DNA of 64,000 bases, taken from Vicinamibacterales bacterium (lineage in GTDB: Bacteria; Acidobacteriota; Vicinamibacteria; Vicinamibacterales; JAMQPK01). Location: the NCBI GenBank assembly GCA_963782595.1, contig CAWAKJ010000005.1, positions 729,581-793,580 of the forward strand. The letters run 5' to 3'. The notes beneath the pieces are model-generated. The model was not told the DNA's origin. It did not search any database and saw only the letters and a list, made by a program, of their open reading frames with translations. Position numbers and translations under genes: made by a program. Positions 1,275-57,520 of this stretch are shown in pieces (within the stretch, counting starts at the first letter, position 1; each line of letters opens with the position of its first letter).

Positions 1275-3736
1275 AGATCCTGTTGGCGGCCGCGACGTGT
1301 TTCACCGTGGCTGTGGCCCTTAACGCGCAAAACACCGCGCCCGCGGCGCCCGCCTCCGCGCAGGCTACGCAGAACGCTTCGGCGCGGCAGGCCCCTGCGG
1401 CGGCCCTCCCGGCCAATCAGGCCGTCGTCCAGAAGTACTGCGTGAGCTGCCACAACGAGAAGGTGAAATCGGGCGGGCTCGCGCTCACCTCGCTGGATAT
1501 GACGCGCGCGCCGAAGGACCTCGAGGCGTGGGAACACGTCATCCGCAAGGTTCGAACGGGAGCCATGCCGCCGGCCGGCCGGCCGCGACCCGACAAGGCG
1601 GCTGCCGAGAACCTCGTCACGTATCTGGAGACCGAGCTCGACAAGTTCGCAGCCGCCAATCCGAACCCGGGCCGCATCTCGCTGCAGCGCCTGAACCGCT
1701 CGGAGTATCGCAACGCGATCCGCGATCTGCTGGCGATCGAAATCGACGCCGCGTCGATGCTGCCGGCCGATGTCGCCGGCCACGGGTTCGACAACAATGC
1801 CGACGCGCTGACGCTGTCGCCCGCGTTGACGGAACGATATCTCGGCGCCGCGGCCAAAATCAGCCAGATGGCGCTCGCACGGCCGCGAGGGCTTCCACTG
1901 CCCGAGACGTTCTTCGTGCCGACCGATCGCAATCAGGGCACGCGCGTCAGCGACGACCTGCCCTTCGGATCTCGCGGCGGACTCGCGATCAAGTATTACT
2001 TCCCCTCCGACGGGGAGTACTTATTCGAGATGCGGCCCCAGGAAAGCGGGGCGGGCGGTGGATTCCAGGGTATTACGGCCGAGCCTCACCAGCTCGACAT
2101 CGCCATCGACGACGTCAAGGCCGGCACGGTGACGCTGGGTGGGCCGGCGATGGCCCGTGGGCGTGGCGGCGATCCTGATGCCGGTGGCGACTATGCTCGC
2201 GAGGATCGGAACAAGAAGATCCTCGAAATGCTGAAGTTCCGCGTGCCGGTCAAGGCGGGCTCGCACGTGGTTCAGGCGTACTTCGCCGCCAAGACCTCTG
2301 CCTATCTCGAAGACCTCTTCGACCAGTCGCTGCGTCGCGATCCCTATCGTGCGGGCGGCGGCGAGCCGAAGATTGCGAGTCTTACGATCACGGGGCCATT
2401 GCCGGAGACGGCGGTGCCAACCGACTCGGCCAGCCGCACGCGCGTCCTGACGTGTGCTCCCAACTCGGCGACCGATGAAGGCTGCGCGAAAAAGATCATC
2501 TCGACGCTCGCGCGTCGTGCGTATCGGCGTCCCGTGACCGACGCCGATCTTCAGGTGCCGCTCGCCTCGTATCGCGACGGCGTGAAGAAAGGCGGCTTCG
2601 AGGCGGGCGTCGAGCTGGCGCTTCGCAGCATCCTGGTGAGCCCGAACTTCCTGTTCAGGTTCGAAGCTCAGCCGCAGGCCCTGGCGCCCAACACGCCGTA
2701 TCGCATCAGCGATCTCGAGTTGGCGACGCGACTGTCGTTCTTCCTCTGGAGCAGCATCCCGGACGAGGCGCTCCTGGACGTGGCAGTGAAAAACAATCTG
2801 CGCAAGCCAGAGGTTCTGCAGCAGCAGGTGAAGCGGATGCTCGACGACCCGCGGTCGCAGGCGCTGGTGGAGAACTTCGCGGGTCAGTGGCTGCACCTTC
2901 GCAACGTGGCCGTGCATCAGCCGAGTCCGGAGTTGCTCTTCCACTTCGACGACAACCTGCGGAGGGCCTTCGAGCAAGAGACGCAGATGTTCTTCGACAG
3001 CATCCTCCGCGAAAACCGGAGCGTCGTCGACCTGCTGGACGCCAACTACACATTCCTGAACGAACGCCTCGCTCGGCACTACGGCATTCCCGGCGTGCTC
3101 GGCGAGCGGTTCAGACGCGTGTCGCTGCCGGCCGACAGTCCGCGCGGCGGGTTGTTGGGACAAGGCTCGATTCTGATGTCCACCTCGTATCCGAACCGGA
3201 CATCGCCTGTCATCCGCGGCAAATGGATTCTGGAGAATGTGTTCGGTGCACCGCCTCCACCGCCGCCGCCGAACGTGCCCGAGCTCAAGGACAGCAGAGA
3301 CCCGCGGAAGATTCTGCCGATGCGCGAACAGCTCGCGGCGCACCGCGCCAACCCTGCGTGCGCCGGCTGTCACGCACAGATGGATCAACTCGGGTTTGCC
3401 CTCGAAAACTTCGACGGCATTGGCGAGTGGCGAGACCTGTACGCCTCGGGCGCCAGGGTGGATGCATCGGCCCAGCTTCCCGACGGAACGAAGTTCAACG
3501 GTCCGGCGGACCTGCGGAAGGTGCTGCGCGCGCATTCCGACGAGTTCCTGACCACGGTGGCCGAGAAGCTGTTGACGTATGCACTCGGCAGAGGGCTCGA
3601 GGCGAGCGACGCGCCGGTCGTCCGCAAAATCAAGCGGGACGCGACACGCGAGAACCACACTTTTGCCGCGCTGGTTCAGGGAATCGTCACGAGTACACCG
3701 TTTACGATGAGGATGGCGATCGAGGACGCAAACTGA
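1271..3736 (+). CDS. DUF1592/DUF1585/DUF1587/DUF1588/DUF1595-type multidomain protein with N-terminal c-type haem motif
   Basis: Signal peptide MKILLAAATCFTVAVALNA and a single CxxCH (CVSCH). Conserved blocks LSFFLWSSIPD, NFAGQWLHLRN and HRANPACAGCHAQMDQLGFALENFDGIG are shared with the paralog at 50877-53312. Family name is from memory of planctomycete/acidobacterial families. Confidence 0.85.
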   Translation: MKILLAAATCFTVAVALNAQNTAPAAPASAQATQNASARQAPAAALPANQAVVQKYCVSCHNEKVKSGGLALTSLDMTRAPKDLEAWEHVIRKVRTGAMPPAGRPRPDKAAAENLVTYLETELDKFAAANPNPGRISLQRLNRSEYRNAIRDLLAIEIDAASMLPADVAGHGFDNNADALTLSPALTERYLGAAAKISQMALARPRGLPLPETFFVPTDRNQGTRVSDDLPFGSRGGLAIKYYFPSDGEYLFEMRPQESGAGGGFQGITAEPHQLDIAIDDVKAGTVTLGGPAMARGRGGDPDAGGDYAREDRNKKILEMLKFRVPVKAGSHVVQAYFAAKTSAYLEDLFDQSLRRDPYRAGGGEPKIASLTITGPLPETAVPTDSASRTRVLTCAPNSATDEGCAKKIISTLARRAYRRPVTDADLQVPLASYRDGVKKGGFEAGVELALRSILVSPNFLFRFEAQPQALAPNTPYRISDLELATRLSFFLWSSIPDEALLDVAVKNNLRKPEVLQQQVKRMLDDPRSQALVENFAGQWLHLRNVAVHQPSPELLFHFDDNLRRAFEQETQMFFDSILRENRSVVDLLDANYTFLNERLARHYGIPGVLGERFRRVSLPADSPRGGLLGQGSILMSTSYPNRTSPVIRGKWILENVFGAPPPPPPPNVPELKDSRDPRKILPMREQLAAHRANPACAGCHAQMDQLGFALENFDGIGEWRDLYASGARVDASAQLPDGTKFNGPADLRKVLRAHSDEFLTTVAEKLLTYALGRGLEASDAPVVRKIKRDATRENHTFAALVQGIVTSTPFTMRMAIEDAN

Positions 3737-3744
3737 CGACGAAT

Positions 3745-3796
3745 GCGTAGTGTCCGGCTTTAGCCGGACCAAAGTAGTGTCCGGCTGCAGCCGGAC
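3745..3796 (+). repeat. REP family 1, two tandem copies (GTAGTGTCCGGCTTTAGCCGGAC / GTAGTGTCCGGCTGCAGCCGGAC)
   Basis: A GTAG tetranucleotide is followed by a 7-bp-stem hairpin GTCCGGC-NNNN-GCCGGAC. The second copy ends 5 nt before SD AGGAGG (3802-3807) of the 3815 gene. Six further copies occur in the window. Confidence 0.8.
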
Positions 3797-3814
3797 GATT
3801 CAGGAGGCTGTCGA

Positions 3815-5143
3815 ATGGTGATCACAAAGTTAGCGTTGCCACGGCGGATGTTCATCCGCGGCATCGGCGCAGCCGTCGCGCTGCCGTTCCTCGATGCGAT
3901 GGTCCCGGCGATGAGAGCGCAGGCGAAAGCGGCGCCCAGATTCACCGCGATCTATTGCGGAAACGGCGCCAACATGGGCGAGTGGACGCCTGCCACAGAT
4001 GGCGTGGGCTTCCAGATGTCGTCGAGCTTGAAGCCGATCGAGGCCTATCGCGATCGCCTCATGGTCGTGACCGGCCTGGACAACTACCAGGCCACGGACC
4101 AGGGCGACGTTGGCGGGCAGCATCCTCGCGCCGCACCGGCCTTTATGAGCTGCGCGCACCCGAAGCAGACCGAAGGTGCCGACGTTGTGGCAGGCATCAC
4201 CATCGATCAGTTGATTGCCGAGAAGATCTGCCGCGACACCAAGCTGCCCTCACTCGAAGTCTCGGTCGACCGCAACGACGTCGTCGGTGCGTGCGATCAC
4301 GGCTATGCGTGCGCCTACATGAACTCGATGTCGTGGAGGACGCCGACGACCCCGCTGCCGTCGGAAACGAATCCACGGTTCGTATTCGAGCGGATGTTTG
4401 GCGTCGGCTCGACCGCCGAAGAGCGCCTGGCTCGAGTCCAGGAAGATCGGAGCATCCTCGACGGTCTGACGCAGGAAATCTCCAATCTTCGTCGAAGGCT
4501 TGGCGCAAGCGATCGGACCAAGCTGGGTCAGTATTTCGATGCGGTTCGCGACGTGGAGCAGCGCATCGTCCGGGCCGAGTCGACCAACAGCACCTTCGAG
4601 GTGCCCGATCAGCCGGTCGGCGTGCCCGAGACGTTCAAGGAATACATCGAGCTGATGTTCGACCTGCAGGTGCTCGCGTTCCAGGCCGACATCACTCGCG
4701 TCAGTTCGCTGATGATGGCGCGGGAAAACGTCAATCGCTCGTATCCCGAGATTGGGTTGCCGGAAGCGCATCACTCGATATCGCACCACGGCTTCAATCC
4801 GGAGAAGATGAAGAACTACGCCAAGCTGAACGCGTACCACGTCGAAACGCTCGGCTACTACCTGCAGAAGCTGGATGCCATCAAGGACGGCGACGGCTCT
4901 CTGCTGGATCACACGGCCGTGCTCTTTGGCAGCGGGATGAGCGAAGGCAATACGCACAACAATTACAACGTTCCTGTGATTGTCGTGGGCGGGAAATCGC
5001 AGCAAATCAAGGGCGATCGGCACCTCCGGTATCCAAAGGGGACGCCGCTCGCGAATCTCATGCTGGGCCTGTCGGACAGGTACGGCGTGAAGGTGGACAA
5101 GTTCGGCGACAGCACGGCGGCGATCGACCTGTTGACCGTGTGA
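3815..5143 (+). CDS. DUF1552 family protein (Tat-like signal)
   Basis: SD AGGAGG lies 7 nt upstream. The N-terminus LPRRMFIRGIGAAVALPFLDAM is Tat-like, and the HHSISHHG block is present. Paralog at 53309-54688; this family characteristically partners DUF1592 genes. Confidence 0.85.
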   Translation: MVITKLALPRRMFIRGIGAAVALPFLDAMVPAMRAQAKAAPRFTAIYCGNGANMGEWTPATDGVGFQMSSSLKPIEAYRDRLMVVTGLDNYQATDQGDVGGQHPRAAPAFMSCAHPKQTEGADVVAGITIDQLIAEKICRDTKLPSLEVSVDRNDVVGACDHGYACAYMNSMSWRTPTTPLPSETNPRFVFERMFGVGSTAEERLARVQEDRSILDGLTQEISNLRRRLGASDRTKLGQYFDAVRDVEQRIVRAESTNSTFEVPDQPVGVPETFKEYIELMFDLQVLAFQADITRVSSLMMARENVNRSYPEIGLPEAHHSISHHGFNPEKMKNYAKLNAYHVETLGYYLQKLDAIKDGDGSLLDHTAVLFGSGMSEGNTHNNYNVPVIVVGGKSQQIKGDRHLRYPKGTPLANLMLGLSDRYGVKVDKFGDSTAAIDLLTV

Positions 5144-5155
5144 AAACCAAACCCA

Positions 5156-5179
5156 GGGATTAGGGACTGGGGATTAGGG
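5156..5179 (+). repeat. GGGATTA/GGGACTG heptad repeat forming a four-tract G-quadruplex motif
   Basis: GGGattaGGGactGGGGattaGGG: four G3+ tracts with 3-4-nt loops, 13 nt after the DUF1552 stop. Same repeat family as 34145-34202. Confidence 0.7.
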
Positions 5180-5192
5180 ACTAGCACTACCT

Positions 5193-13099: not shown

Positions 13100-13161
13100 C
13101 GCAGGCCGTTCTAACGCATAGCAGTTTCAGCGTCGATCCACTCGGACATAGTCCGCACGCC

Positions 13162-13255
13162 CGCCAACGCGGAAGGCGGATCTGTCTGCCACGCGGCCGG
13201 AACTGACGGTGCACGAACACGGCCGCTTGCAGACAGATCCGCCTCCCGCATGGCG
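13162..13255. repeat. Palindromic element W (hairpin); left arm is also an inverted repeat of 13951-13996
   Basis: CGCCAACGCGGAAGGCGGATCTGTCTGC ... GCAGACAGATCCGCCTCCCGCATGGCG. The left arm plus loop (13162-13207) is about 90% identical to the reverse complement of 13951-13996. Confidence 0.6.
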
Positions 13256-13351
13256 AGGCGCTGACTCTCCGATGGTATCCAGCTTCCCGCCATCGCCTAG
13301 GCGGTATCGGGTCTCGCAAGGGGTCCAAAAATCTGCGAGTGCGGGGCTTTC

Positions 13352-13645
13352 TTACCGCACTGCAGTCACTCTGCTCACTGGGACCTGCGGCATCCACGCA
13401 GGCGTCGCATCCTCCCACTGGTTGTCGGTGAGCTGCCGCAGTCCTGTCCCATCGGGCCGGATCATGAAGAGCTCGCCGTAGGGCTGGGGAATCGTTTCAG
13501 ACAGTGCGCGCTCGTCCTTGAATCCCATGAGGGCGCTGCTGAAGACAACCCATTGGCCGTCAGGCGACCAGATTGAGTGCGCATCGCCTGGCGAATCGGT
13601 CAGCTTACGCAGGCCGGTGCCATCCGGCCGTATGAGGTAGAGCAC
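13352..13645 (-). pseudogene. C-terminal remnant of a TolB-like / PD40 beta-propeller repeat protein
   Basis: Two PD40-type repeats (LIRPDGTGLRKLTDSPGDAHSIWSPDGQWVVF; MIRPDGTGLRQLTDNQWED). Upstream the frame runs directly into palindromic element X and loses all similarity. No signal peptide and no SD. Confidence 0.5.
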
Positions 13646-13649
13646 AACC

Positions 13650-13893
13650 GTGTAGCGTCCCAGGGGCGGTTGGGTTGGCCTTGCTGCATCGCGAAGCCGT
13701 GCGCAGGCGGCCGACCCGCCACGCCTGACCGCGCGAGAAGCCTCCGGGAATCAAGCGAGGTTGACCGAGCGAAGGCAGGGACCTCGCGTCGGGCGGTCAC
13801 CGTCGGGCCTCGGAGCGCGCGTCCGGCCCCGAAGCTTCGGATTCGCGATGCAGCAAGGCCAACCCAAGCGCCTTCGGGCTGGGACGCTTACTC
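13650..13893. repeat. Palindromic structured element X (core 13670-13867), homolog of Y at 35435-35606
   Basis: 26-bp perfect closing stem TTGGGTTGGCCTTGCTGCATCGCGAA / TTCGCGATGCAGCAAGGCCAACCCAA. It shares an internal 20-mer CCTGACCGCGCGAGAAGCCT and a GCGAGGT..ACCTCGC hairpin with copy Y. Confidence 0.7.
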
Positions 13894-13894
13894 G

Positions 13895-13919
13895 GTCCGG
13901 CTAAAGCCGGACACTACGT
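13895..13919 (-). repeat. REP family 1 copy
   Basis: Plus strand reads GTCCGGCTAAAGCCGGACACTACGT. The GTAG-first orientation is on the minus strand. Confidence 0.8.
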
Positions 13920-13950
13920 ACAACTGAAAAGCGCGCTAGCGCGAAGGCGG

Positions 13951-13996
13951 GTCAGTTCCGGCCGGCAGGCAGACAGATCCGCCTCCCGCGTTGGCG
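13951..13996. repeat. Element W arm (inverted copy of 13162-13207)
   Basis: GTCAGTTCCGGCCGGCAGGCAGACAGATCCGCCTCCCGCGTTGGCG is close to the reverse complement of 13162-13207. Confidence 0.6.
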
Positions 13997-14056
13997 CGCG
14001 TGACCTCCCTGAGGAATCATGCCGGCTGATCTGGGATTGGCCCATCGCGTGTTGCG

Positions 14057-15028
14057 CTATTTACCTTCCCCCGCGGCCTTCTCCTGCACACGTGCGCCAC
14101 TGAGGAGGTTCACCATCCCGTAGTTGCCCTCGTGGCAGGCGTACTCGTAAATCAGCTCATCGGTGCCGGCCATCGGAATCGCCGCCGTCCACTTGCTCGT
14201 GAAGGTTGCCGGGTCGTCGATCGTAAATTCGTACTTGACGGTGCCGTTGTCTATGCGCGTAAAGCGCTCGATGAGCCGAAGCTTTTCCGTTGACCCTCTG
14301 AAGCTCCATTTGTCGGTGAAGTTCGTGGTCTCGACGACGAGCGTGTCGCCTTCCCAGCGCCCGCGCGAATCGCCGAACCACTGGCGAACGTTCTGGCCGA
14401 TGTGTGGACGGCCGTCGAGAGGAATGATCCGGGCATCGTGAATCATCTCGTGGAGAATCACGACATGCGTCGGGGTCTGCAGAATCTGGTAGTTGTTGTT
14501 GTAAGGACCTGGCACCAGGGGCAGCCCGCGCGTGATGCAGCGCTCCCACAGGCTCCGATCCTCCCAGGAATCATAGCCGCGCGCGGCGCGCGCGGTCGCA
14601 CGCTTTTGTCCCTCCGGCGTCAACACCGGTACGCGTCCATCGGGCGGATCGACCACGAGCGACGTCTGCCTCGTTGAGACGACCTTCGTTCCCCGATCCC
14701 ACCAGAAGTCGTTGTAGGCTCGGGCGAGGTCGGTGTCGGTCCCGGCGCCATCGCGTCGATCCTGGTTGTTTGTCGTCAGGTTTGTTCTCTCGAGTTCCGC
14801 CGCTTCTTCCTCGGTGAGCACCTGTTTGCCGGCAAGGGCGCCGGGCCGTTCGAAAGGTGTAATCGTCGCAATCGACCAGACGCCCTGAAGATCCGGATCG
14901 CCCCACGGCATGCGGGGCAGGGTTCGGGTCTCCGTCCTGGACTGACCGGCGATCGTGATCGTTGCCAGCGAGGCTGCGGCGGCCGCTAACGCGAGCGCCC
15001 TAATTGGTCTTCTTGCGAAGATGGCCAT
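14057..15028 (-). CDS. Secreted protein, uncharacterised paralog family A (member 1)
   Basis: Signal peptide followed by WGDPDLQGVW. Blocks SLVVDPPDGRVP, NNNYQILQTPTHVVILHEMIHDARIIPLDGRPH, WFGDSRGRWEGDTLVV, IERFTRI and YEYACHEGNY are shared with 16386-17345 and 18663-19713. The start overlaps the upstream gene by 29 nt. Confidence 0.8.
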   Translation of the reverse strand: MAIFARRPIRALALAAAAASLATITIAGQSRTETRTLPRMPWGDPDLQGVWSIATITPFERPGALAGKQVLTEEEAAELERTNLTTNNQDRRDGAGTDTDLARAYNDFWWDRGTKVVSTRQTSLVVDPPDGRVPVLTPEGQKRATARAARGYDSWEDRSLWERCITRGLPLVPGPYNNNYQILQTPTHVVILHEMIHDARIIPLDGRPHIGQNVRQWFGDSRGRWEGDTLVVETTNFTDKWSFRGSTEKLRLIERFTRIDNGTVKYEFTIDDPATFTSKWTAAIPMAGTDELIYEYACHEGNYGMVNLLSGARVQEKAAGEGK

Positions 15029-15846: not shown

Positions 15847-15871
15847 GTCCGGCTAAAGCCGGACACTACGT
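15847..15871 (-). repeat. REP family 1 copy in 5' leader of 15830 gene
   Basis: Minus sense reads ACGTAGTGTCCGGCTTTAGCCGGAC-cgttGGAGatttcgagATG. Confidence 0.8.
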
Positions 15872-15877
15872 ATTACC

Positions 15878-15925
15878 ACCTGCCATCTGCCATCTGCCAT
15901 CTGCCATCCGCCATCTGCCCTGACA
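15878..15925 (+). repeat. GCCATCT heptad tandem array ending CTGACA
   Basis: CACCTGCC ATCTGCC ATCTGCC ATCTGCC ATCCGCC ATCTGCC CTGACA. Related arrays at 17361-17433, 22179-22256, 57320-57353 and 57391-57425. Confidence 0.8.
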
Positions 15926-15932
15926 TGTTTCA

Positions 15933-16366: not shown

Positions 16367-16390
16367 GTCCGGCTAAAGCCGGACTCTACT
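16367..16390 (-). repeat. REP family 1 copy filling the spacer between two genes
   Basis: Minus sense reads aaaGTAGAGTCCGGCTTTAGCCGGAC-ctttcGGAGGattcATG. The TAG stop of the 16386-17345 gene lies inside the GTAG tetranucleotide. Confidence 0.8.
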
Positions 16391-17345
16391 TTGTTTCTTC
16401 GGCTCGCGCACCACTCAGCAGATTCGTCATGCCGTAATTGCCTTCGTGGCACGCATACTCGAATATCGGGCCTTCCGTCCTCGTCATCGGAATGGCCGCC
16501 GTCCACGGTCTCGTAAAGGATCTCGGATCGTCAACCGTAAACTGGTAGTCGATCGTATCAGCGTCGATGCGCCTGAAACGCTCGACGAGCTTCATATTCG
16601 GGCTCGATCCCCGGAAATTGGTCTTGTCCGTGAAATTTGACGTCGTGACGACAAGCGTGCTCCCGTCCCAGCGGCCACGCGAATCGCCCATCCATTGGCG
16701 GATCGCTGGCGACGCATGGGGACGGCCGTCGAGCGGAATGATGCGCACATCGTGGATCATCTCGGTGAGGATCACCACGTAGCCCGGAGCCTGCAGAATC
16801 TGGTAGTTGTTGTTGTAGCCGCCGGGAATCATCGGCGGACCTGCGGTCGGCCACAGGATGCACCGCTCCGCGAGACTGCGATCCTCGGGGCCGTCGGCGG
16901 GACTGCGCCGCCGCGCCGCGGCGCGAGCGTCGGCTTGCTGCTGTGCGTCGGGCGTCAGCGACGGCACCCGTCCATCGGGCGGATCCACGACCAGCGACGT
17001 GCGCCTCGTACCGACAACCCTCGTTCCGCGTTCGTACCAGAACTGGTTGTACGCGCGCCCGAGATCGGCGTCGGTCCCGCCGGTGCGATTGTCTGCGTCG
17101 CGCGCGGTGAGTGTCTCCTTTTCAAATTCCACAGCTTCCTGTTCCGTCAGCACCGGCTTGTCGCTCAAGTTCGCCGGCCGTTCGAACGGCGTAATGGTGG
17201 CGTTGGTCCACAGGCCCTGCAAGTCCGGGTCGCCCCAGGGTGTGCGGGCCGTACGGGGACCTGCCGGCGACTGACCGAAGACCGTTGCGATGGTCAGCGC
17301 CGCACCGGCGACGGTCATCGTGAGGTGTCCAAACCGGTTACGCAT
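16386..17345 (-). CDS. Secreted protein, uncharacterised paralog family A (member 2)
   Basis: Start at ATG 17345 (MRNRFGHLTMTVAGAALTIATVFGQ). Blocks WGDPDLQGLW, SLVVDPPDGRVP, NNNYQILQAPGYVVILTEMIHDVRIIPLDGRPH, WMGDSRGRWDGSTLVV and FEYACHEGNY. Confidence 0.8.
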   Translation of the reverse strand: MRNRFGHLTMTVAGAALTIATVFGQSPAGPRTARTPWGDPDLQGLWTNATITPFERPANLSDKPVLTEQEAVEFEKETLTARDADNRTGGTDADLGRAYNQFWYERGTRVVGTRRTSLVVDPPDGRVPSLTPDAQQQADARAAARRRSPADGPEDRSLAERCILWPTAGPPMIPGGYNNNYQILQAPGYVVILTEMIHDVRIIPLDGRPHASPAIRQWMGDSRGRWDGSTLVVTTSNFTDKTNFRGSSPNMKLVERFRRIDADTIDYQFTVDDPRSFTRPWTAAIPMTRTEGPIFEYACHEGNYGMTNLLSGARAEETK

Positions 17346-17360
17346 TTGTGACTGTCTTCC

Positions 17361-17433
17361 GTCAGGGCAGATGTCAGATGGCAAATGGCAGACGGTACTC
17401 TATGCCATCATCCATCTGCCCTCTGCCATCAGA
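17361..17433. repeat. Inverted pair of GCCATCT-class heptad arrays (imperfect hairpin) in divergent intergenic region
   Basis: GTCAGGGCAGATGTCAGATGGCAAATGGCAGAC ... GCCATCATCCATCTGCCCTCTGCCATCAGAC. Confidence 0.65.
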
Positions 17434-17518
17434 CCTTACGAGCCGAAGATAGACCCTTCAAATCAGCGTGTCAATTGATTCGGCAGGGTTTAGACTTCGC
17501 CTGGGAAGGACCCATAAC

Positions 17519-21000: not shown

Positions 21001-21057
21001 CGCGGCAGATCATACCCCCGCGCCGCCGGCGCGTCGATCGTTGTTCGGGTTTAACCC

Positions 21058-21130
21058 CGGCGGCCAGTTGAATTGACGCAGGCAGCATGGTTGGCATGAT
21101 TGCGGGGTCGCCAAATTCAACTGGCCACCG
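21058..21130. other. 17-bp-stem inverted repeat between two minus-strand genes
   Basis: CGGCGGCCAGTTGAATT ... AATTCAACTGGCCACCG (16/17 pairs, 39-nt loop). An alternative partner CGTCAATTC (21132-21140) overlaps the stop of the 21135 gene. Confidence 0.35.
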
Positions 21131-21134
21131 GACG

Positions 21135-22082: not shown

Positions 22083-22147
22083 CAGAAAAGGGGTCGGGAG
22101 GATTTTTCGGGTGTGTTACGCGAAAAATCCTCCCGACCCCTTTTCTG
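22083..22147 (-). terminator. 27-bp perfect-stem hairpin downstream of the TonB-receptor gene (possible terminator / REP-like)
   Basis: CAGAAAAGGGGTCGGGAGGATTTTTCG-11 nt-CGAAAAATCCTCCCGACCCCTTTTCTG. On the minus strand it is followed by TTTCGT. The architecture GAAAA-N9-GGGAG-N2-ATTTT resembles the hairpin at 46072. Confidence 0.4.
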
Positions 22148-22178: not shown

Positions 22179-22256
22179 GTCAGGGCAAATGGCAAATGGC
22201 AAATGGCAGATGGCAGACAGCTCTCAGCCATCAGCCATCTGCCCTCTGCCATGACA
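22179..22256. repeat. Inverted pair of GCCATCT/GGCAAAT heptad arrays
   Basis: GTCAGGGCAAATGGCAAATGGCAAATGGCAGATGGCAGAC-agctctca-GCCATCAGCCATCTGCCCTCTGCCATGACA, 5 nt beyond the receptor stop. Confidence 0.75.
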
Positions 22257-22260
22257 ATCG

Positions 22261-32184: not shown

Positions 32185-34152
32185 ATGTCATCCAATCCAT
32201 TCGACTCGAACGATTCATCCCTTTTCGATATCTCGACCCGCGCGCGCGGACCTGCGGGAGTGCTGCCCTTGACGCCCGAGATGCTGCGCGAGCGGCCGTC
32301 CGGCGATCTCTTCGGGTGGACACAGAACGCGGGCATGGGTTGGAATCCGGCGGCACTCGGCGGCAACGAGTTTCTGATGCTCTCGACCCATGGCGGTATC
32401 CGAGCCGCGGACGGAACGCCAATTGCGCTCGGCTATCACACGGGCCATTGGGAAGTTGGCTTGCTCCTCGAGGCGGCGGCGGGCGTCTTCAAGAGCGCGG
32501 GTGCGATTCCGTTTGCGGCTGCCTGCACCGATCCGTGCGACGGGCGCTCGCAGGGCACGACCGCCATGTTCGACAGTCTGCCGTTTCGCAACGATGCCGC
32601 CACGGTGTTTCGACGGCTCATCCGATCGCTTCCCACAAGGCGCGGTGTGCTCGGCGTCGCCACCTGCGACAAAGGGCTGCCGGCAATGATGATGGCGCTT
32701 GCGGCCACTCACAACCTGCCTGCGGTGCTCGTGCCAGGCGGCGTGACGCTGTTGCCGGAGCAGGGGGAAGATGCCGGCAAGATTCAAACGCTTGGCGTTC
32801 GCTTCGTGCATGGCAGCATCACGCTCGAGGAAGCGGCAGATCTCGGATGCCGGGCGTGTGCCTCACCCGGGGGCGGCTGTCAGTTTCTCGGCACTGCCGC
32901 GACCTCGCAGGTTGTCGGAGAAGCCCTTGGCATGTCGCTTGGTCACTCGGCTCTCGCACCGTCGGGCCAGCCAATCTGGATCGACATGGCGCGCCGCTCG
33001 GCCACAGCGCTGATGGCGCTCGAAGCGGAACGCACGACGATGTCCGACATCGTCACGGACGCCGCCATTCGTAATGCCATGGTCGTCTTTGCCGCGTTCG
33101 GAGGGTCGACCAATCTGATTCTGCATCTGCCGGCGATTGCCCACGCCGCAGGACTACGCCGGCCTGTCGCCGCTGACTGGGCGGAAGTGAATCGGCAGGT
33201 GCCACGCATTGTCGATGCGTTACCGAACGGCCCACGCAATCATCCGACGGTGCAGGTGTTTATGGCAGGTGGTGTGCCGGAAGTGATGCTGCACCTGCGG
33301 CGAGCCGGGTTGCTCGATACGAAGGTGATGACCGTTGCCGGCACGTCGCTCGACAGTCAGCTCGACGCATGGGAGTCGTCCGAGCGACGGTCGAGGCTGC
33401 GCGCTCGACTCGAGGGTGAAGGCGTCGATCCCGACGATGTGATTGTGTCGCCGGAGGACGCGCGTGGCCGAGGCTTGACGTCCACCGTGTGTTTTCCACA
33501 CGGGAACATCGCACCGGATGGCGCCGTCATCAAGAGCACCGCCATCGATTCGTCTGTCGTCGATGCCGACGGGGTGTATCGCATGACCGGCCCGGCAAAA
33601 GTATTTTTGTCGGAGCCCGCGGCCATGGATGCGATTAAGGCGAAGCGCATCAAGTCCGGAGATGTGCTCGTCCTCATCTGCCGGGGTCCGATGGGGGCCG
33701 GCATGGAAGAGACGTACCAGATAACGAGCGCGCTTCGCCATCTGCCATTCGGCAAACACGTGGCGGTCATCACAGACGCGCGCTTCAGTGGTGTCTCGAC
33801 CGGCGCGTGTATCGGCCATATCTCGCCCGAGGCGCTCGCAGGCGGACCGATCGGGAAGCTGAAAGACGGCGACGTCCTCGAGATCGTGGTCAACCGCAGC
33901 ACGCTTGAAGGCACGCTGAATCTGGTCGGCGAAAACTTCGTCGAGCTGAGCGCAGCGGAAGGCTCGCGCTTGCTCGAGGCGCGTGAATCCCGATCCGATC
34001 TCGTCGCTGATGCGGCGCTGCCGGACGACACACGCATCTGGGCCGCACTACAGGATGTGAGCGGCGGAACGTGGGGCGGCGCTGTGTACGATGCCGACTC
34101 GATCCTTCGCACGCTCGCGGCGGGGAAGGAGGCGCTGCGGGACAGGGACTAG
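32185..34152 (+). CDS. IlvD/Edd-family dehydratase, YjhG/YagF (D-xylonate dehydratase)-like
   Basis: 655 aa. Blocks [50 protein letters not shown] and [17 protein letters not shown]. Confidence 0.85.
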
Positions 34153-34202
34153 CGACTAGGGATTGGGGACTAGGGATTGGGGATTAGGGACTAGGGATTA
34201 GG
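34145..34202 (+). repeat. Telomere-like GGGATTA/GGGACTA/GGGATTG heptad array (seven G3+ tracts)
   Basis: GGGactagcgactaGGGattGGGGactaGGGattGGGGattaGGGactaGGGattaGG. It spans the TAG stop (34150-34152) of the dehydratase and the stop of the minus-strand small ORF. Confidence 0.8.
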
Positions 34203-34396
34203 CCGCGGCGTAGGCGCGTGAGGCGGTCGATTTTCGTCGCAAGCCCTCGCACCTCGGTGAGCACGATCTTCTGCACCTTTTCGACGATATCGGAGTGTTT
34301 GCGCGTCCGCTCGGCCTCGCTGAGGATGAGCTGCTGCAATTCGGCGATCCGCGCATCGATCTTGGCGAGTTGTTCCTTCACTTCATGGTCTTCCAT
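34184..34396 (-). CDS. Hypothetical small coiled-coil protein (~70 aa)
   Basis: MEDHEVKEQLAKIDARIAELQQLILSEAERTRKHSDIVEKVQKIV.. Third-codon positions show strong G/C bias consistent with coding. No clear SD. The last codons lie in the heptad repeat. Confidence 0.4.
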   Translation of the reverse strand: MEDHEVKEQLAKIDARIAELQQLILSEAERTRKHSDIVEKVQKIVLTEVRGLATKIDRLTRLRRGLIPSP

Positions 34397-34539
34397 GGAA
34401 TGTGGAAACAGCACGCGACATGCCACCTCGGCCCAGCAAAAATCAGCCGAATGCAACCGCTTCCGTACCGGCCGCGCATTTTCTGCTCTTCGGACGGGTG
34501 GTCCCGGTGGCGCTTTCTGCTATGCGAAGGGCGTTGGGC

Positions 34540-35165: not shown

Positions 35166-35199
35166 CAATAGCCAGACGCACCGCGCGGACGTATGGCCG

Positions 35200-35274
35200 G
35201 ACAGGGCGGGCATTCTGCTCGCGGCAACGTGTTTTCGAGTATCTATTGCCGCTACGCAGAACGCCCGCCCTGTT
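35200..35274. other. 19-bp-stem inverted repeat downstream of cupin gene
   Basis: GACAGGGCGGGCATTCTGC-37 nt-GCAGAACGCCCGCCCTGTT (one A-C mismatch, one terminal G-T). Confidence 0.35.
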
Positions 35275-35383
35275 CAGCCATCTCTGCCGCGCGCTCTTGT
35301 CTCGCCTTGGTTTCAAACGTGGCAGATATTCCGGCAGACCACGTTCGGCAAGGCTGCGGTTTGAAGATCTCCTCAAGGCGAGG

Positions 35384-35656
35384 CCTGCTCATACCAATGT
35401 TCTGCGGAGCGGGCAAATGCGTATCTGTCTCAGGTTGAGGTTGCTGCAGCGCGAAGCCGTGCGGAGGTGCCGACACACGAAACCTGACCGCGCGAGAAGC
35501 CTGTGGGCACCGAGCGAGGTTACGAACCTCGCGTCAAACGGCCCGCAGTGGGCCTCGCAGCGCGGTCCGGCGCCAAAGCCCCGGATTCGCGCTGCAGCAA
35601 CCTCAAGCTGAGACAGATCCAACGTTGCTCGCCGGCAGAACGTCGGCGTGAGCAGG
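35384..35656. repeat. Nested palindromes: hairpin Z (arms 35384-35416 / 35625-35656) carrying element Y (core 35435-35606) in its loop
   Basis: The Z arms CCTGCTCATACCAATGTTCTGCGGAGCGGGCAA / TTGCTCGCCGGCAGAACGTCGGCGTGAGCAGG match the stand-alone Z at 40970-41052. Y has a 21-bp perfect stem TTGAGGTTGCTGCAGCGCGAA / TTCGCGCTGCAGCAACCTCAA and is homologous to X. Confidence 0.7.
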
Positions 35657-35665
35657 CCTCGCATG

Positions 35666-35690
35666 ATCCGGCTGAAGCCGGACACTACGT
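35666..35690 (-). repeat. REP family 1 copy (variant loop)
   Basis: Plus strand reads ATCCGGCTGAAGCCGGACACTACGT, 5 nt beyond the stop of the 35696 gene. Confidence 0.75.
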
Positions 35691-35695
35691 CTTAG

Positions 35696-36271
35696 TTAAA
35701 TCGGAAGCCGACGAGTACCTGTGAACGTCTGCTTCTTGATGTCCACCAGGTTGCTGAAGGTGTTGTTGATGCGCCGCAACCCTTTGTCGTAGCGACCTTC
35801 GATAATGATGCGAGCGACTTCGATGCCTCCTCCGAATACCAGGGTCACGTCAACGCTTTCGAATCCGTTGTCCAGCGTGACACCTTCGATGTCATCGCCA
35901 ATCTTGAGGTCGAGTGCGGGGCCGGCGATGCCGTAGATGGAGGGGCCGCTCGACGAACTGCTGCCGATGTTCAGGCGCAGCAGGATGGGCACCTGCAGAT
36001 AATCTATTCTGATTTTCGGCCCTCCCGATTCCGGTTCGCTTGTTTTTCGAATCCAGTTGAGCTCCGACTGCAGGCCCATGACGCCGTCGCGATTGCCGCC
36101 GAAGAAGAGGCCGGCGAATACGCCAGTGCGGTTTTTGTAGTCGAGCGCGTCGCTGCTGAACTCGGTGAATGTTGTCCCGAACTTGACGCCTTGTGCCGCC
36201 GCAGTTGACGCCGAGCCGGCGATGACGAGTGCTGCGACACCCGCAGTTCGAGCGTATCGACGGACGTTCAT
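35696..36271 (-). CDS. Outer-membrane beta-barrel (porin-family, OMP_b-brl-like) protein
   Basis: Start at ATG 36271 with SD GAGGAG 8 nt upstream. Signal peptide ..STAAAQ. Alternating-hydrophobic beta strands (GVFAGLFFGG, IDYLQVPILLRLNIG, VTLVFGGGIEV). Confidence 0.7.
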   Translation of the reverse strand: MNVRRYARTAGVAALVIAGSASTAAAQGVKFGTTFTEFSSDALDYKNRTGVFAGLFFGGNRDGVMGLQSELNWIRKTSEPESGGPKIRIDYLQVPILLRLNIGSSSSSGPSIYGIAGPALDLKIGDDIEGVTLDNGFESVDVTLVFGGGIEVARIIIEGRYDKGLRRINNTFSNLVDIKKQTFTGTRRLPI

Positions 36272-36304
36272 GGGAGGGACTCCTCTGGGGCCAGGGAGCC
36301 GGGG

Positions 36305-36328
36305 GAAGAAAGCCGGGACGAACCGGCT
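36305..36328 (-). terminator. Weak candidate intrinsic terminator after radical-SAM gene
   Basis: Minus sense reads AGCCGG-ttcgtc-CCGGCT followed by TTCTTCCC. Only a 6-bp GC stem. Confidence 0.3.
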
Positions 36329-36360
36329 GTTCCCATAGTACCGCAATCAGTCCGACGAAT

Positions 36361-40791: not shown

Positions 40792-40969
40792 GCCCGCGCA
40801 TTCTATCGCAAGAATGAAAGGTCTCGTTTGCGGGAATTGATCCTGATCTCGCTGGTGCACACTTCTTCTTGCTTGAATGGGCTCTTTCTGAACGCGCCTG
40901 AACCAGTCCTTGGGAACAGGAGGTTAGGAGACCAGGAGGAACGGTTTCAAAAACTCGCGTCGGACGACG

Positions 40970-41052
40970 CCTGCTTACGCCGATGTTCTGCGGAGCGGGC
41001 AATAGATACTCAGAAACACGTTGCCCGCGAGCAGAACGTCGGCGTGAGCAGG
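40970..41052. repeat. Stand-alone hairpin Z
   Basis: CCTGCTTACGCCGATGTTCTGCGGAGCGGGCAA-18 nt-TTGCCCGCGAGCAGAACGTCGGCGTGAGCAGG. Same arms as at 35384/35625 but with an empty loop. Confidence 0.7.
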
Positions 41053-41078
41053 CCGCTCGCTCAGCTTTGAAACCGATT

Positions 41079-45107: not shown

Positions 45108-45373
45108 ACAGGAGCTCAGGAGCTCAGGAGGAGCTCAACGCGGAGGCAAGGAGCTCAGCCTCGACTTCGCGCCGTTGGCGCGCGCGAAGAAGAAGACAAG
45201 CCGAATATCAAGAGCAAAGGTTCGTGCAGCTCTTGTATTCGGCTTGTCTTCTTCTCCGCGCGTGGGCCGCGTTCGCGGCCCACGAAGTCGATGCTCTCTC
45301 ACGAGGGCTTGGACATCGTCGCGTCGTCGTGTCGTCGTGTTGTTGTATTTCTCTTGATCTCTTGATCTCCTGT
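45108..45373 (+). other. Large imperfect palindrome filling the convergent spacer (possible structured 3' UTR / bidirectional terminator)
   Basis: Outer stem is 45108-45131 with 45350-45373 (18 Watson-Crick, 4 G-U, 2 mismatches). CGACTTCG pairs with CGAAGTCG. The central ~28-bp hairpin is 45186-45215 / 45229-45256. Confidence 0.5.
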
Positions 45374-46012: not shown

Positions 46013-46071
46013 GTTCCGCCTCCTGTTTCCTCACGCGGGAACAGGTGGCGGATTCACTCAGCGGGAACAGG

Positions 46072-46143
46072 GGAAAACCGCTCCGGGAGCCATTTTCCCG
46101 GGTGGATCTCAGAAAATGGCTCCCGGAGCGGTTTTCCGTTTTT
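46072..46143 (+). promoter_or_regulatory. 26-bp perfect hairpin + T-run in the leader region of the ECF sigma gene
   Basis: GGAAAACCGCTCCGGGAGCCATTTTC-14 nt-GAAAATGGCTCCCGGAGCGGTTTTCC followed by GTTTTTCG. It lies between divergent starts 46012 and 46186. Confidence 0.4.
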
Positions 46144-46185
46144 CGAGTGAGTGAAAACCCGGACGGATTACGCGTTAAATTAAGG

Positions 46186-50876: not shown

Positions 50877-53312
50877 TTGCTCGTTGGCGCAGCGGCCGCC
50901 TTCCTCCCGGTATCCGTCTATCCCCAACCATCGACAAACCCGCCTGGTGACGCGGCCTCGCACCGAGCCGTGGTCACACGCTATTGCGTCGCCTGTCACA
51001 ACGAGCGAGTGAAGACCGGCGGGTTATCGCTCGAAAAAATCGACATCGCAAACATCGGGGGCGATCCAGATCTCTGGGAGAAAGTCGTCCAGAAGCTGCA
51101 CGGCAATCTGATGCCGCCGCCTGGCCGTCCGCGACCTGACGAAGCAGCGTTCAAGGGACTGATTACGTATCTCGAGACCTCGCTCGATCGCGCCGCGGAT
51201 GCGAGTCCAAATCCGGGACGCACCGAGGCGCTCCATCGGCTGAATCGTGCGGAATATCGCAATGCGGTTCGCGATCTGCTGGCGCTCGACATCGACGTCG
51301 GATCGATGCTGCCGGCCGATGATGTGAGCTACGGGTTCGACAACATCGCGGGCGTGCAGCGGATGTCGCCAACCCTGATGGAGCGATATCTGGCGGCGGC
51401 TCAGAAGATCAGCTCGGTTGCCGTCGGGGCGTCGTCGCGCGCGGCCACCACCGAGACGTTTCTCGTTTCGCCGGACCTGCGACAGGACGACCGGCTGGAG
51501 GGCTTGCCGTTCGGCACGCGCGGTGGGACGTTGATTCGTCACCACTTTCCGCGGGATGGCATCTACAGCGTTCGGGTCCAGTTGACCAGATACCTCGGCG
51601 CCAGCTTCGACGAGATTCCTGCGTTCGACGAGCCGCAGCGGCTCGAGCTGAGCCTCGACGGCGTCCCGGTGCATGTTTTCGAGCTGAATCCGGCGACGCT
51701 GAAGGAAGGTGGTGGCTATTCAGGCCCAAACCGCCGCGCGCTCGATGCCGATTGGCAGATTCGGTTCCCGGCCAGGTCTGGCCCGCAGAACGTCGCGCTC
51801 ACGTTCCTCAACCGGACCCCGGCGCTGCTGGAGAATCTGCTCGAGCCGTTCGAGAAGCCGGCGCCAGGCGGGCCAAACGGCTACTACACGACTCAGAAAG
51901 GCGCCTATCTTCGCAGCATCGCGATCAGCGGGCCGTACGAAGCACGCGGGGTGGGCGAGACACCGAGCCGCCAGCGGATATTCGTGTGCCGTCCCAGAAG
52001 CGTCGATGCGCAACAGCAAAGTGGCTGCGCGAAGAAGATTCTGCTGACGCTGGCGCGCCGCGCGTTCAGGCGGCCGGTGGGTGAGGCCGACATCGCGACG
52101 GCGTTCTCGCTCTACGAAGAAGGACGCGCCGCGCGCGATTTCGAGCTCGGCATCGAGCGGGCCGTGGAGGGACTGCTCGTCAGCCCCGAGTTCCTCTATC
52201 GCGTTGAGCGCGAGCCAGGATTTGCCGGGTCTACAAAACAAGACCCGGCCTACGTCACTTCCAAAGGGCAAGACCCGGCCTACTATCGGATCAGCGATCT
52301 CGAGCTGGCCTCGCGGCTGTCGTTTTTCCTGTGGAGCAGCATCCCCGACGCTGCGTTGCTCGACGCTGCCGCTTCTGGAAAGCTGCGTAACCCGGCCGTG
52401 CTCGACGACCAGGTGCGACGCATGCTCGCCGACCCTCGTGCCGAGGCGCTCGTCACGAATTTCGTGGGGCAGTGGCTGTTCCTGAGAAATCTTCCGACCC
52501 TGCTGCCCGATCCCAAACGCGATCTCGACTTCGATGAAGCCCTGCGGCAGGGCTTCAGGCGCGAAACCGAGCTCTTTGCCGCCAGCATTCTGAAGGAAGA
52601 CCGCAACCTGCTGGAGCTGCTGACCGCGAACTACACGTTCGTCAACGAGCGGCTGGCGAAGCATTACGGCATTCCGCATATCCGCGGCACGCACTTTCGC
52701 CGCGTCGAGCGTACCGATGATCGCCGCCGCGGGATTTTGGGTCATGGCAGTGTGCTGGCGGTGACGTCGTACCCGCATCGCACGTCGCCGGTGCTCCGCG
52801 GCAAGTGGATTCTGGAGAATCTGCTCGGCACGCCTTTGTCGCCGCCACCCCCGGACACGCCGGCGCTCGTGGAAAAGCCGAACCCGGCCGACGAGAGCCT
52901 GTCGATGCGCGCGCGCATCGCGCAGCATCGTGCGAATCCAGCCTGCGCGAGCTGCCATGCCATGATGGATCCGCTCGGGTTGTCGCTCGAAAATTTCGAC
53001 ATGGTGGGTCGCTGGCGCGAGGTAGACGAAGGGCTTTTGGCGATCGACGCGTCAGGTGCGCTGCCCGACGGCACAAAGTTCGAGGGACCGGCAGGACTGC
53101 GCGCCGTCCTGCTGAAGAATCCCGACAGGTTCGTCAGTACCTTCACCGAGAAGATGCTGACCTATGCGCTCGGCCGTGGCCTGGAGTCGTACGACATGCC
53201 CGCAGTACGGAAAATCACGCGCGAGGCGGCGAAGCAGAACTACCGTGCTTCGTCTCTCATCGCGGGCATCGTCATGAGTCGTCCATTTCAGATGCGGAGG
53301 CGGCAGTCATGA
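50877..53312 (+). CDS. DUF1592-type multidomain haem protein (paralog of 1271-3736)
   Basis: CVACH motif. Blocks LSFFLWSSIPD, NFVGQWLFLRN and HRANPACASCHAMMDPLGLSLENFDMVG. A TTG start at 50877 leaves a weak signal peptide. The frame is open upstream with in-frame ATT/ATC codons (..IIRTALFPLLVG..). Confidence 0.85.
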   Translation: MLVGAAAAFLPVSVYPQPSTNPPGDAASHRAVVTRYCVACHNERVKTGGLSLEKIDIANIGGDPDLWEKVVQKLHGNLMPPPGRPRPDEAAFKGLITYLETSLDRAADASPNPGRTEALHRLNRAEYRNAVRDLLALDIDVGSMLPADDVSYGFDNIAGVQRMSPTLMERYLAAAQKISSVAVGASSRAATTETFLVSPDLRQDDRLEGLPFGTRGGTLIRHHFPRDGIYSVRVQLTRYLGASFDEIPAFDEPQRLELSLDGVPVHVFELNPATLKEGGGYSGPNRRALDADWQIRFPARSGPQNVALTFLNRTPALLENLLEPFEKPAPGGPNGYYTTQKGAYLRSIAISGPYEARGVGETPSRQRIFVCRPRSVDAQQQSGCAKKILLTLARRAFRRPVGEADIATAFSLYEEGRAARDFELGIERAVEGLLVSPEFLYRVEREPGFAGSTKQDPAYVTSKGQDPAYYRISDLELASRLSFFLWSSIPDAALLDAAASGKLRNPAVLDDQVRRMLADPRAEALVTNFVGQWLFLRNLPTLLPDPKRDLDFDEALRQGFRRETELFAASILKEDRNLLELLTANYTFVNERLAKHYGIPHIRGTHFRRVERTDDRRRGILGHGSVLAVTSYPHRTSPVLRGKWILENLLGTPLSPPPPDTPALVEKPNPADESLSMRARIAQHRANPACASCHAMMDPLGLSLENFDMVGRWREVDEGLLAIDASGALPDGTKFEGPAGLRAVLLKNPDRFVSTFTEKMLTYALGRGLESYDMPAVRKITREAAKQNYRASSLIAGIVMSRPFQMRRRQS

Positions 53313-57319: not shown

Positions 57320-57425
57320 CACTGCCATCTGCCCTCTGCCATCTGCCCTGACACGTAGGGCGGGTCTTGAACTCCAAGACCCGCCCTACATCACTGCCCT
57401 CTGCCATCCGCCATCTGCCCTGACA
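57320..57425. repeat. REP family 2 palindrome (57355-57389) sandwiched between two direct GCCATCT-heptad arrays
   Basis: Left array is CACTGCCATCTGCCCTCTGCCATCTGCCCTGACA. The centre is GTAGGGCGGGTCTTGAACTCCAAGACCCGCCCTAC. Right array is CACTGCCCTCTGCCATCCGCCATCTGCCCTGACA. Confidence 0.8.
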
Positions 57426-57520
57426 GGCGCAGCTCTCAGCGTCGCCGCTCGTCGTGGAGCTCCTGCCGCAACACAGGCAGTTCGCGTTTGTATCCGTCGG
57501 CGTCGCCGTAGTCTACGAAA

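Follow-up and report, generated by a model that had tools for sequence, protein, structure and literature searches.

Several kinds of hairpin-forming repeat have been described. In REPINs, REP doublets form hairpins that are mobilised by RAYT tyrosine transposases, and compensatory changes within these hairpins are known (Bertels & Rainey 2011, PMC3116915). Bacterial MITEs that are imperfect palindromes over their whole length include ERIC/IRU, Correia/NEMIS, RUP and Nezha (PMC3733652). In organelle genomes, for example that of Volvox carteri, palindromic selfish repeats are nested in one another (PMC2670323).

Here we describe two palindromic elements, X and Y, in a 64,000-nt stretch of the genome of a Vicinamibacterales bacterium (contig CAWAKJ010000005.1, positions 729,581 to 793,580; hereafter the window). 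They are members of a family of intergenic hairpin repeats, not described before, that has dozens of copies per genome among soil bacteria of the Vicinamibacterales. The family is not described in the literature that we searched on Vicinamibacter and Acidobacteria repeats. The original prediction, made from the sequence of the window, had proposed either a structured ncRNA family or a MITE with co-evolving arms. The co-varying family is real, and both alternatives fail in the form in which they were put. We favour a dispersed hairpin repeat that is selected for single-stranded folding, as DNA or as RNA.

The two copies and their family

Direct reading of the sequence bears out most of what had been reported for X and Y. 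The closing stems are perfect over 26 bp in X and 21 bp in Y, the inner hairpin GCGAGGT...ACCTCGC is seen in both copies, and a copy of REP-1 lies to the right of each (Table 1). The shared 20-mer, described earlier as unpaired, is in fact paired: in both MFE and consensus structures its partner is the conserved 3'-arm block. On the 3' arm, GACCGCGC finds its complement in GCGCG(N)GTC, and GA.GCC in GGC.TC. Two exact matches to the 20-mer were found, against 0.02 expected. Outside the closing stems that had been quoted, pairing continues in both copies, and an inverted-repeat scan identified an additional inverted repeat around Y (35378-35405 with 35635-35662). The same scan ranks X and Y as the two longest inverted repeats of the window, with arms of 35 nt at 94% complementarity in X and of 51 nt at 84% in Y.

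Table 1. Positions in the window of copies X and Y, their parts and the adjoining repeats
Feature	Position	Strand	Evidence or remark
Copy X, family core hairpin, type A	13670..13867	+	nhmmer, covariance model, fold
X closing stem, 5' arm (inverted repeat I2)	13670..13695	+	26 bp perfect complement
X closing stem, 3' arm	13842..13867	+	direct reading, inverted-repeat scan
X conserved 5'-arm block CCTGACCGCGCGAGAAGCCT	13724..13743	+	exact in X and Y; pairs with 13805-13828
X apex hairpin GCGAGGT...ACCTCGC, long-loop variant	13755..13787	+	
X conserved 3'-arm block GGGCCTCGGAGCGCGCGTCCGGCC	13805..13828	+	near-invariant columns; partner of the 20-mer
X outer pairing, 5' side, GTAGCGTCCCAG..., GTAG-tagged	13652..13669	+	MFE; partner 13868-13891
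X outer pairing, 3' side, ...CTGGGACGCTTAC	13868..13891	+	MFE, flank duplex
REP-1 beside X, GTAG head read on the minus strand ACGTAGTGTCCGGCTTTAGCCGGACC	13894..13919	-	repeat families D3/D17
X degenerate left outer module of the type-A composite, TAGAGC--ACAACCGTG (consensus TAGAGCGCTTTTCAGAATCGTG)	13637..13651	+	about 20 left flanks compared
X right outer module ACTGAAAAGCGCGCTA, inverted partner of the left module	13923..13938	+	right flanks compared
Copy Y, family core hairpin, short-apex variant	35435..35606	+	nhmmer, covariance model, fold
Y closing stem, 5' arm (part of inverted repeat I1)	35435..35455	+	21 bp perfect
Y closing stem, 3' arm	35586..35606	+	direct reading, inverted-repeat scan
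Y conserved 5'-arm block	35483..35502	+	exact match to the 20-mer
Y apex hairpin GCGAGGTT-ACG-AACCTCGC	35514..35532	+	U-A in place of the C-G of GCGAGGUC/GACCUCGC
Y conserved 3'-arm block GGGCCTCGCAGCGCGGTCCGGCG	35550..35572	+	
Y outer stem, 5' side ATCTGTCTCAGG	35423..35434	+	partner 35607-35618
Y outer stem, 3' side GCTGAGACAGAT	35607..35618	+	partner 35423-35434
HP-2 left arm, hairpin repeat hosting Y in its apex	35378..35416	+	TTCTGCGGAGCGGGCAA match; inverted repeat I7
HP-2 right arm, host of Y	35624..35662	+	alignment, inverted-repeat scan
REP-1 beside Y, directly after the stop of the OMP gene (35696-36346, minus strand)	35665..35690	-	

Both copies are predicted to be highly structured. 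On either strand X and Y fold with z scores of -8.6 to -11.5, and none of 200 dinucleotide shuffles folded as well; X reaches -163 kcal/mol (z -8.9) and Y has a z score of -11.5. The nhmmer scores are 205 bits for X and 175 bits for Y, and a covariance model separates the strands clearly (X, 198 bits on the plus strand versus 51 on the minus; Y, 184 versus 59). A coding role was considered and rejected: open reading frames run across X and Y, yet indels between copies do not preserve the frame.

The element had been reported as present twice; X and Y are not a private pair, and both are members of a large family. A scan of one-genome-per-species collections with an exact interior 18-mer returned at least 109 loci, mainly in MAGs of Vicinamibacterales or other Acidobacteriota, within which an nhmmer profile built from X and Y identified 66 complete copies and a further 18 or so that are partial. 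A single MAG, CAVVBP01, accounts for at least 22 loci. A second scan, of soil and rhizosphere metagenomes, used the other conserved block as query and so removed the 18-mer bias. The family was found in 96 of the 120 loci retrieved, and among 37 full copies the 18-mer had no mismatch in 15, one in 13 and two in 6 (34 of 37 with zero to two). Overall, the family comprises at least 140 copies in Vicinamibacterales and other Acidobacteriota genomes and in soil metagenomes. The unit is about 190-220 nt long, non-coding, multi-copy and dispersed. A scan of viral contigs for the family gave no matches.

As had been anticipated, the element is not a known Rfam family. Rfam 15 gave no match at the gathering score in the window, and at E<=10 the region 13500-14050 yielded only unrelated chance matches of 15-23 bits.

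Covariation in the closing stem and the strand that folds

All copies fold as a single long irregular hairpin with a common layout, in which the inner core is near-invariant and the closing stem, 30-40 bp long, is variable in sequence yet paired in about 90% of cells. The co-variation of the arms, noticed first between X and Y, persists with many more copies. Among 54 genome copies, 33 pairs show double changes, and in the 35-pair closing helix compensatory double changes occur at 28 pairs. In the same 54 copies, 93.5% of cells form standard pairs, versus 35-44% when the partner is slid by one to three columns, and none of 500 column shuffles reached the observed value on any of five measures. 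The result was replicated on 77 distinct, independently ascertained copies, where almost every closing-stem column contains all four Watson-Crick types and about 90% of cells are paired.

The interior spans about 120 nt and consists of an invariant helix (GACCGCGC/GCGCGGTC), a GA/GCA internal loop, a helix GGCCG/CGGCC and the apex stem. The inner helices change little, with rare exact compensations in GGCCG/CGGCC, GACCGCGC/GCGCG(N)GTC and GA.GCC/GGC.TC. At the apex an ACG triloop caps a stem of 8 bp; X has a long-loop variant. The apex stem co-varies (GCGAGGUC/GACCUCGC, GCCAGCUC/GAGCUGGC and GCGAGGUU/AACCUCGC), and family-wide its compensations run between GCGAGG/CCTCGC, GCCAGC/GCTGGC and GCGAGC/GCTCGC.

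The metagenome set revealed a second lineage, type B, that has the same interior as type A and unrelated closing stems, often 20-30 bp perfect (for example GGAGCTCACTTGTGTCGAG...). A covariance model built from the first set only recovers type-B copies end to end, at 90-130 bits. Over the whole family, conservation is lowest in the terminal 25-30 nt. We attempted to place the element ends from MFE folds of extended flanks; these folds were unusable, given that the GC-rich flanks over-pair.

The asymmetric interior defines a plus strand, and the closing stem is not neutral with respect to it. Read on that strand, the genome set contains 62 G·U cells against 15 A·C cells (22 versus 13 columns) and the independent set 105 against 26 (27 versus 11 columns), counts that are not phylogenetically independent. 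Symmetric mutation would give equal numbers, so the G·U excess points to selection on the folded plus strand. G·T is the best-tolerated mismatch in DNA hairpins, and the selected strand could therefore be DNA or RNA.

The free co-variation of the stem around invariant loops is the classic pattern of a functional RNA. Rare exact compensations within otherwise invariant inner helices, and the 4:1 ratio of G·U to A·C that both sets show on one strand, likewise favour a structured RNA. Such an RNA might work in cis in the 3' UTR, as an RNase III or stability/termination module, or in trans as an ncRNA with many copies, an assignment that we consider possible and somewhat doubtful. Its interior loops would be the functional site and its closing stem a scaffold, with copies kept by per-locus selection; this division of roles is about as tentative as the assignment itself. 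The lack of any credible Rfam match, even at E<=10, argues against a structured RNA, and the tolerance of G·T in DNA hairpins means that the strand asymmetry is not RNA-specific. The genomic setting of the copies bears further on the question.

Genomic setting, mobility and nesting

X is flanked by a PD40-repeat fragment and a 323-aa gene of unknown function, both on the minus strand, and Y lies between a convergent cupin gene and a gene for an outer-membrane beta-barrel protein (OMP). Genes around the copies were called with a simple method based on GC3. By this call, convergent genes flank 31 of 47 copies in genomes, and 3' ends outnumber 5' ends by 125 to 44 among the neighbouring genes of both sets. 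Location at gene 3' ends matches the way in which REP, ERIC and MITE RNAs act (PMC3733652), and in this respect supports a structured RNA. The orientation of the copies argues the other way. In tandem gene contexts the element is co-oriented with the genes in 13 cases and opposed in 9. Among type-A copies, the closest gene is on the right-hand side and opposed in 47 of 55, so that its read-through would yield the minus strand, the strand with A·C mismatches. Scans of X and Y for sigma-70-like promoters and intrinsic terminators of consensus type were negative, which also counts against a structured RNA.

No mobilising gene was identified near the copies. Recurrent neighbours in the loci around copies are only large paralogous families, with no transposase among them, and the 8-kb loci contain no candidate for the single-copy RAYT gene that REPINs have, and flank, in the same genome. 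A RAYT was considered for the gene between the REP-1 copies at 15848 and 16368; that gene encodes a DUF6152 protein. Neither a long element with the same ends nor a recurrent transposase ORF was found in 229 loci.

Some copies are part of a larger unit. The REP-1 noted beside X and Y is a feature of the type-A lineage as a whole. Of 71 genome-set copies, 40 have a REP-1 to their right, in a single orientation and no more than 110 nt away, versus one copy with REP-1 on the left, and REP-1 adjoins only 2 of 62 metagenome copies, which are mostly from other lineages. It is a typical GTAG-tagged REP (GTAG plus GTCCGGC-NNNN-GCCGGAC) and also occurs alone. Many type-A copies have in addition an outer inverted repeat of 16-17 bp, TAGAGCGCTTTTCAGAA...TTTGAAAAGCGCTCTA, that is found beside the core only; the right flanks of many copies end in ...ATTTGAAAAGCGCTCTA. 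Both halves are present at X in degenerate form. The ends of the core, TTGGGTTGG...CCAACCCAA, also recur within the type-A lineage. In this lineage the element would travel as a composite of about 330 nt, made up of the core, a GTAG-type REP on a fixed side and the outer inverted repeat.

Comparison of related loci revealed polymorphism at single sites. There is one clean pair of filled and empty sites (L090 and L012), from genomes with flanks about 90% identical. The two differ by about 320 nt, the whole composite, and the empty site is not palindromic. Look-ups of the exact proteins encoded beside X and Y returned no record, and hence no empty sites at strain level. At another locus (L104) only an internal-deletion or stem remnant is left of the copy present in L052, and at a further site the composite sits in opposite orientations in two loci (L085 and L191). 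Close inverted pairs are all head-to-head (7-8 in the arrangement -,+ and none in +,-), with no homology among their spacers. Such polymorphism and inversion, together with the nesting described below, are the behaviour of a repeat and weigh against a structured RNA. Conservation in place is mixed. In two orthologous pairs the core is far more diverged than the flanks (87-90% versus 97% identity), and in five of eight orthologous pairs it is as conserved as the largely coding flanks or more so. The latter is a point in favour of a structured RNA, and it agrees equally well with selection in place, for a function of the host or of an RNA, and with selfish spread.

We regard a stand-alone RNA gene as unlikely. 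The copies are many and polymorphic in their sites, they favour intergenic positions at gene 3' ends and show no preferred orientation there, and promoter and terminator signals of consensus type were missing at X and Y.

A conventional MITE would be an internally deleted IS, with a DDE transposase binding its terminal inverted repeats and arm co-evolution reflecting different master copies. Size, non-coding character, multi-copy dispersal and intergenic location all fit, as do the recurrent type-A ends and the outer 16-17 bp inverted repeat of the type-A composite. The family as a whole does not follow this plan: its terminal 25-30 nt are the part that varies most, the stems of types A and B are unrelated, and the search of 229 loci gave no parent element. 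Direct target-site duplications were absent at X, at Y and at the other copies inspected, where the flanks are complementary or unrelated. In addition, descent alone does not predict about 90% pairing with four pair types per column, or a strand-biased G·U excess. The family is not a canonical MITE because it has variable termini, no target duplications at the copies inspected and no parent IS in the 229 loci, and the conventional-MITE reading, to which we would give very little credence, is largely refuted.

The surroundings of Y raise the possibility that apical loops of hairpins already in the genome (those of REPs, other repeats or terminators) are the only places where the core inserts, in which case the outer stem would be host sequence. 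Y sits exactly in the apex of the hairpin repeat HP-2: its flanks align arm for arm with an intact HP-2 copy at 40967-41055, and the 17-mer TTCTGCGGAGCGGGCAA is exact at 35400 and 40986. A third copy of HP-2 (35194-35280) has the same HP-2 interior with an unrelated, REP-2-like outer stem, so that among copies of HP-2, too, the outer stems are unrelated. Around X there is a GTAG-headed palindrome, and the flank duplex of X, at -26.9 kcal/mol, is equalled by 3% of controls; for Y the figure is 0.5%. Flank pairing passes the 5% control tail in 13 of 73 copies (18% versus 5% expected). Nesting of palindromic repeats has its precedent in the organelle genomes cited above, and IS elements reportedly target REPs (PMC1525189).

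These observations do not extend to the family. Mean pairing of the flanks beyond the model ends is no better than in mismatched controls (-17.0 versus -16.0 kcal/mol), closing stems are inherited within subfamilies and hence belong to the element, and the single empty site is not a palindrome. We rejected nesting in host palindromes as a general rule, as it holds for Y and a minority of copies only, and exclusive insertion into apical loops seems to us improbable. Insertion that produces an inverted target duplication was also rejected, being unsupported by the filled and empty pair and by the comparison of Y with HP-2.

A hairpin repeat with a conserved centre

Taking these lines of evidence together, the best explanation is that X and Y are copies of a hairpin repeat, non-coding and non-autonomous, which has spread through genomes of the Vicinamibacterales and is similar to a REPIN or foldback MITE with the opposite layout. 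We would put the chance that this is correct at about even. In such a repeat, the plus strand, single-stranded and folded, would be the active form. A trans-encoded factor would recognise the conserved asymmetric interior, while the closing stem would supply the fold, for which only pairing would be required. Lineages with stems that lose pairing would stop propagating or be selected against, and their loss would explain the co-evolution of the arms. Copies would accumulate where harm is small, downstream of genes. We infer that the element is mobile by way of a single-stranded intermediate and that its interior is recognised by a protein, for which an HUH/Y1-type enzyme such as RAYT would be the obvious candidate.

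Several observations count against this hairpin-repeat explanation or parts of it. No conserved termini or target duplications mark an insertion, the clean pair of filled and empty sites stands alone, no transposase recurs beside copies, and the core conservation in five of eight orthologous pairs fits a host or RNA function equally well. The orientation of copies relative to local GC skew is unbiased (38 versus 37), which argues against a replication-coupled ssDNA transposon, with the reservation that 8-kb windows make this a weak test. A conserved interior of about 120 nt is also large for a transposase site, and so counts against mobilisation of a hairpin repeat.

Perhaps the interior is an active single-stranded module: the substrate of a hairpin-dependent mobilisation system not recognised so far, or an RNA that is catalytic or binds protein. 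With a 'sequence-free' closing stem around it, it would have propagated through the class Vicinamibacteria. We consider this a long shot. If true, the family would represent a new kind of selfish structured element in bacteria, either an ssDNA hairpin transposon independent of REP and RAYT or an RNA-mediated element resembling a SINE.

The family matters beyond the question of its mechanism. Vicinamibacteria occur commonly in the metagenomes sampled, which are from soil and rhizosphere, and a family found across the class is missing from annotation and repeat libraries. With its neighbours REP-1, HP-1 and HP-2 it can be expected to break assemblies and create spurious ORFs (such as 13577-13927 and 35246-35611), and the same set of repeats can be used as lineage markers. 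A fixed interior with a freely co-varying stem of 30-40 bp is the reverse of what MITEs and REPINs have, and this reversed layout offers a clean natural test of what keeps arms complementary, be it propagation, host function or repair.

Integron attC sites are imperfect palindromes of 57-141 nt with conserved R and L boxes at the base and a variable centre. The family differs in its length of about 200 nt, in its variable base and conserved centre, and in the absence of RYYYAAC...GTTRRRY at its ends. Rfam ncRNA families differ from it in that it has no Rfam match and occurs in dozens of copies per genome. Retron msr/msd RNA resembles the family in having a variable closing stem (a1/a2) around a structured, conserved interior and in its strong covariation. 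A reverse-transcriptase gene lies directly downstream in retrons, whereas neither an RT nor any other fixed partner gene is found beside copies of the family.

The nested repeats of organelle genomes resemble Y in HP-2, in that hairpin repeats inside hairpin repeats build larger palindromes. Organelle repeats are 11-77 nt long, AT-rich and simple, and nesting in our family concerns a minority of copies. GTAG-tagged REPs (Di Nocera et al. 2013, PMC3733652) share with the family a location between convergent or unidirectional genes, downstream of coding regions. They are 20-40 bp long with a terminal GTAG, whereas the core of the family measures about 200 nt and has an interior that is both complex and asymmetric.

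Like the family, bacterial MITEs are 70-300 bp long, non-coding and gene-adjacent, and form robust stem-loops able to act as RNA. They have conserved terminal inverted repeats of 15-30 bp that match an IS, and usually target duplications, neither of which is seen in the family. The family also has no sequence similarity to the MITEs listed at the outset, and its taxon is Acidobacteriota.

REPINs provide the closest parallel in overall character: like the family they are non-coding, multi-copy and intergenic, with a single long hairpin predicted in ssDNA or mRNA, and they too show compensatory changes, vertical persistence in a bacterial lineage and head-to-head dimers. The family is two to three times longer, and its arms are without a REP motif. 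Where REP-1 does stand beside the core it is a separate module, on one side and in one lineage, unlike the arms of a REPIN. The layouts are opposite. In REPINs the terminal REP 16-mers are conserved and the central spacer is variable, whereas in this family the centre is conserved and the ends vary.

Surroundings of the main-family copies

We identified two small ORFs close to X and Y, the two copies in the window of the ~200-nt hairpin repeat that forms the main family (coordinates of all features are tabulated below). The PD40 ORF begins within the left outer module of X (13637-13651) and looks like the remnant of a gene truncated at its 5' end. Within the small ORF left of Y, 73 nt match, with 88% DNA identity, positions 3609-3681 of L052, a locus fetched from another genome; this region is the sequence directly left of the main-family copies at L052 and L104. 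One possibility is that this ORF represents a small, conserved gene encountered repeatedly in the vicinity of main-family copies; another is that the match is a coincidence. A main-family copy at L101 also adjoins a PD40-repeat gene.

Inverted main-family copies no more than 1.3 kb apart (loci L052, L021, L050, L089, L004, L068, L117 and L123) are all arranged head-to-head (-,+) and none is (+,-). The spacers between them are unrelated to one another. Clear copies also occur at L011, L055 and L054, loci whose bins carry the labels Solirubrobacterales, Alphaproteobacteria and Gemmatimonadaceae; these could be mis-binned Acidobacteriota contigs, or could reflect horizontal transfer.

Features in the window
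Feature	Positions	Strand
97-aa ORF, single PD40 repeat	13352-13645	-
Small ORF ~1 kb left of Y	34184-34456	-
HP-1 copies flanking X on both sides	13158-13260; ~13940-14000	
HP-2 copy	40967-41055	
HP-2 copy	35194-35280	
HP-2 copy split by Y	35378-35416 with 35624-35662	
REP-1, ACGTAGTGTCCGGCTTTAGCCGGACC	3747; 3774; 13894; 15848; 16368; 35665; 46777; 57253	
REP-2, GTAGGGCGGGTCTTGAACTACAAGACCCGCCCTAC	10991; 28805; 57355	
Other long hairpins, near-perfect	22083-22147; 45181-45262; 46065-46144; 21057-21131	
Heptamer tandem runs	15880-15928; 17402-17436; 22225-22259; 57322-57428; 5156-5184; 34124-34208	
Paralogous gene blocks	14057-15028 vs 16386-17384	
Paralogous gene blocks	1680-5131 vs 51229-54667	

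REPs, tandem runs and paralogous blocks

REP-1 and REP-2 are two GTAG-tagged REP families, and stop codons directly precede most copies. Adjoining REPs and hairpins are intergenic heptamer runs of two types, CTGCCAT and GGGATTA/GGGACTA. Similar short tandem runs flank many main-family copies in other genomes. REP-1 copies also separate the closer pair of paralogous blocks, which encode secreted proteins of unknown function with no match in Pfam. DNA identity across the two pairs is 70-84%.

Other hairpin repeats

Long palindromes are unusually abundant in the window. Four hairpins with arms of 18-33 bp (91-97% complementarity) have no sequence kinship to the main family. HP-1, with the stem GGCGGATCTGTCTGC/GCAGACAGATCCGCC, is a third hairpin family. 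Its copy right of X is inverted and truncated, related sequence lies left of the main-family copies at L064 and L027, and the outer stem of Y, ATCTGTCT...AGACAGATCC, resembles the HP-1 stem.

HP-2 is the second hairpin repeat family. Its copies in the window share a conserved interior of ~55 nt, TTCTGC..GCGGGCAATAGATACTC.GAAAACACGTTGCC.GCGAGCAGAA, enclosed by outer stems that are complementary within each copy and unrelated between copies. HP-2 thus has the same layout as the main family, a fixed core with a free stem.
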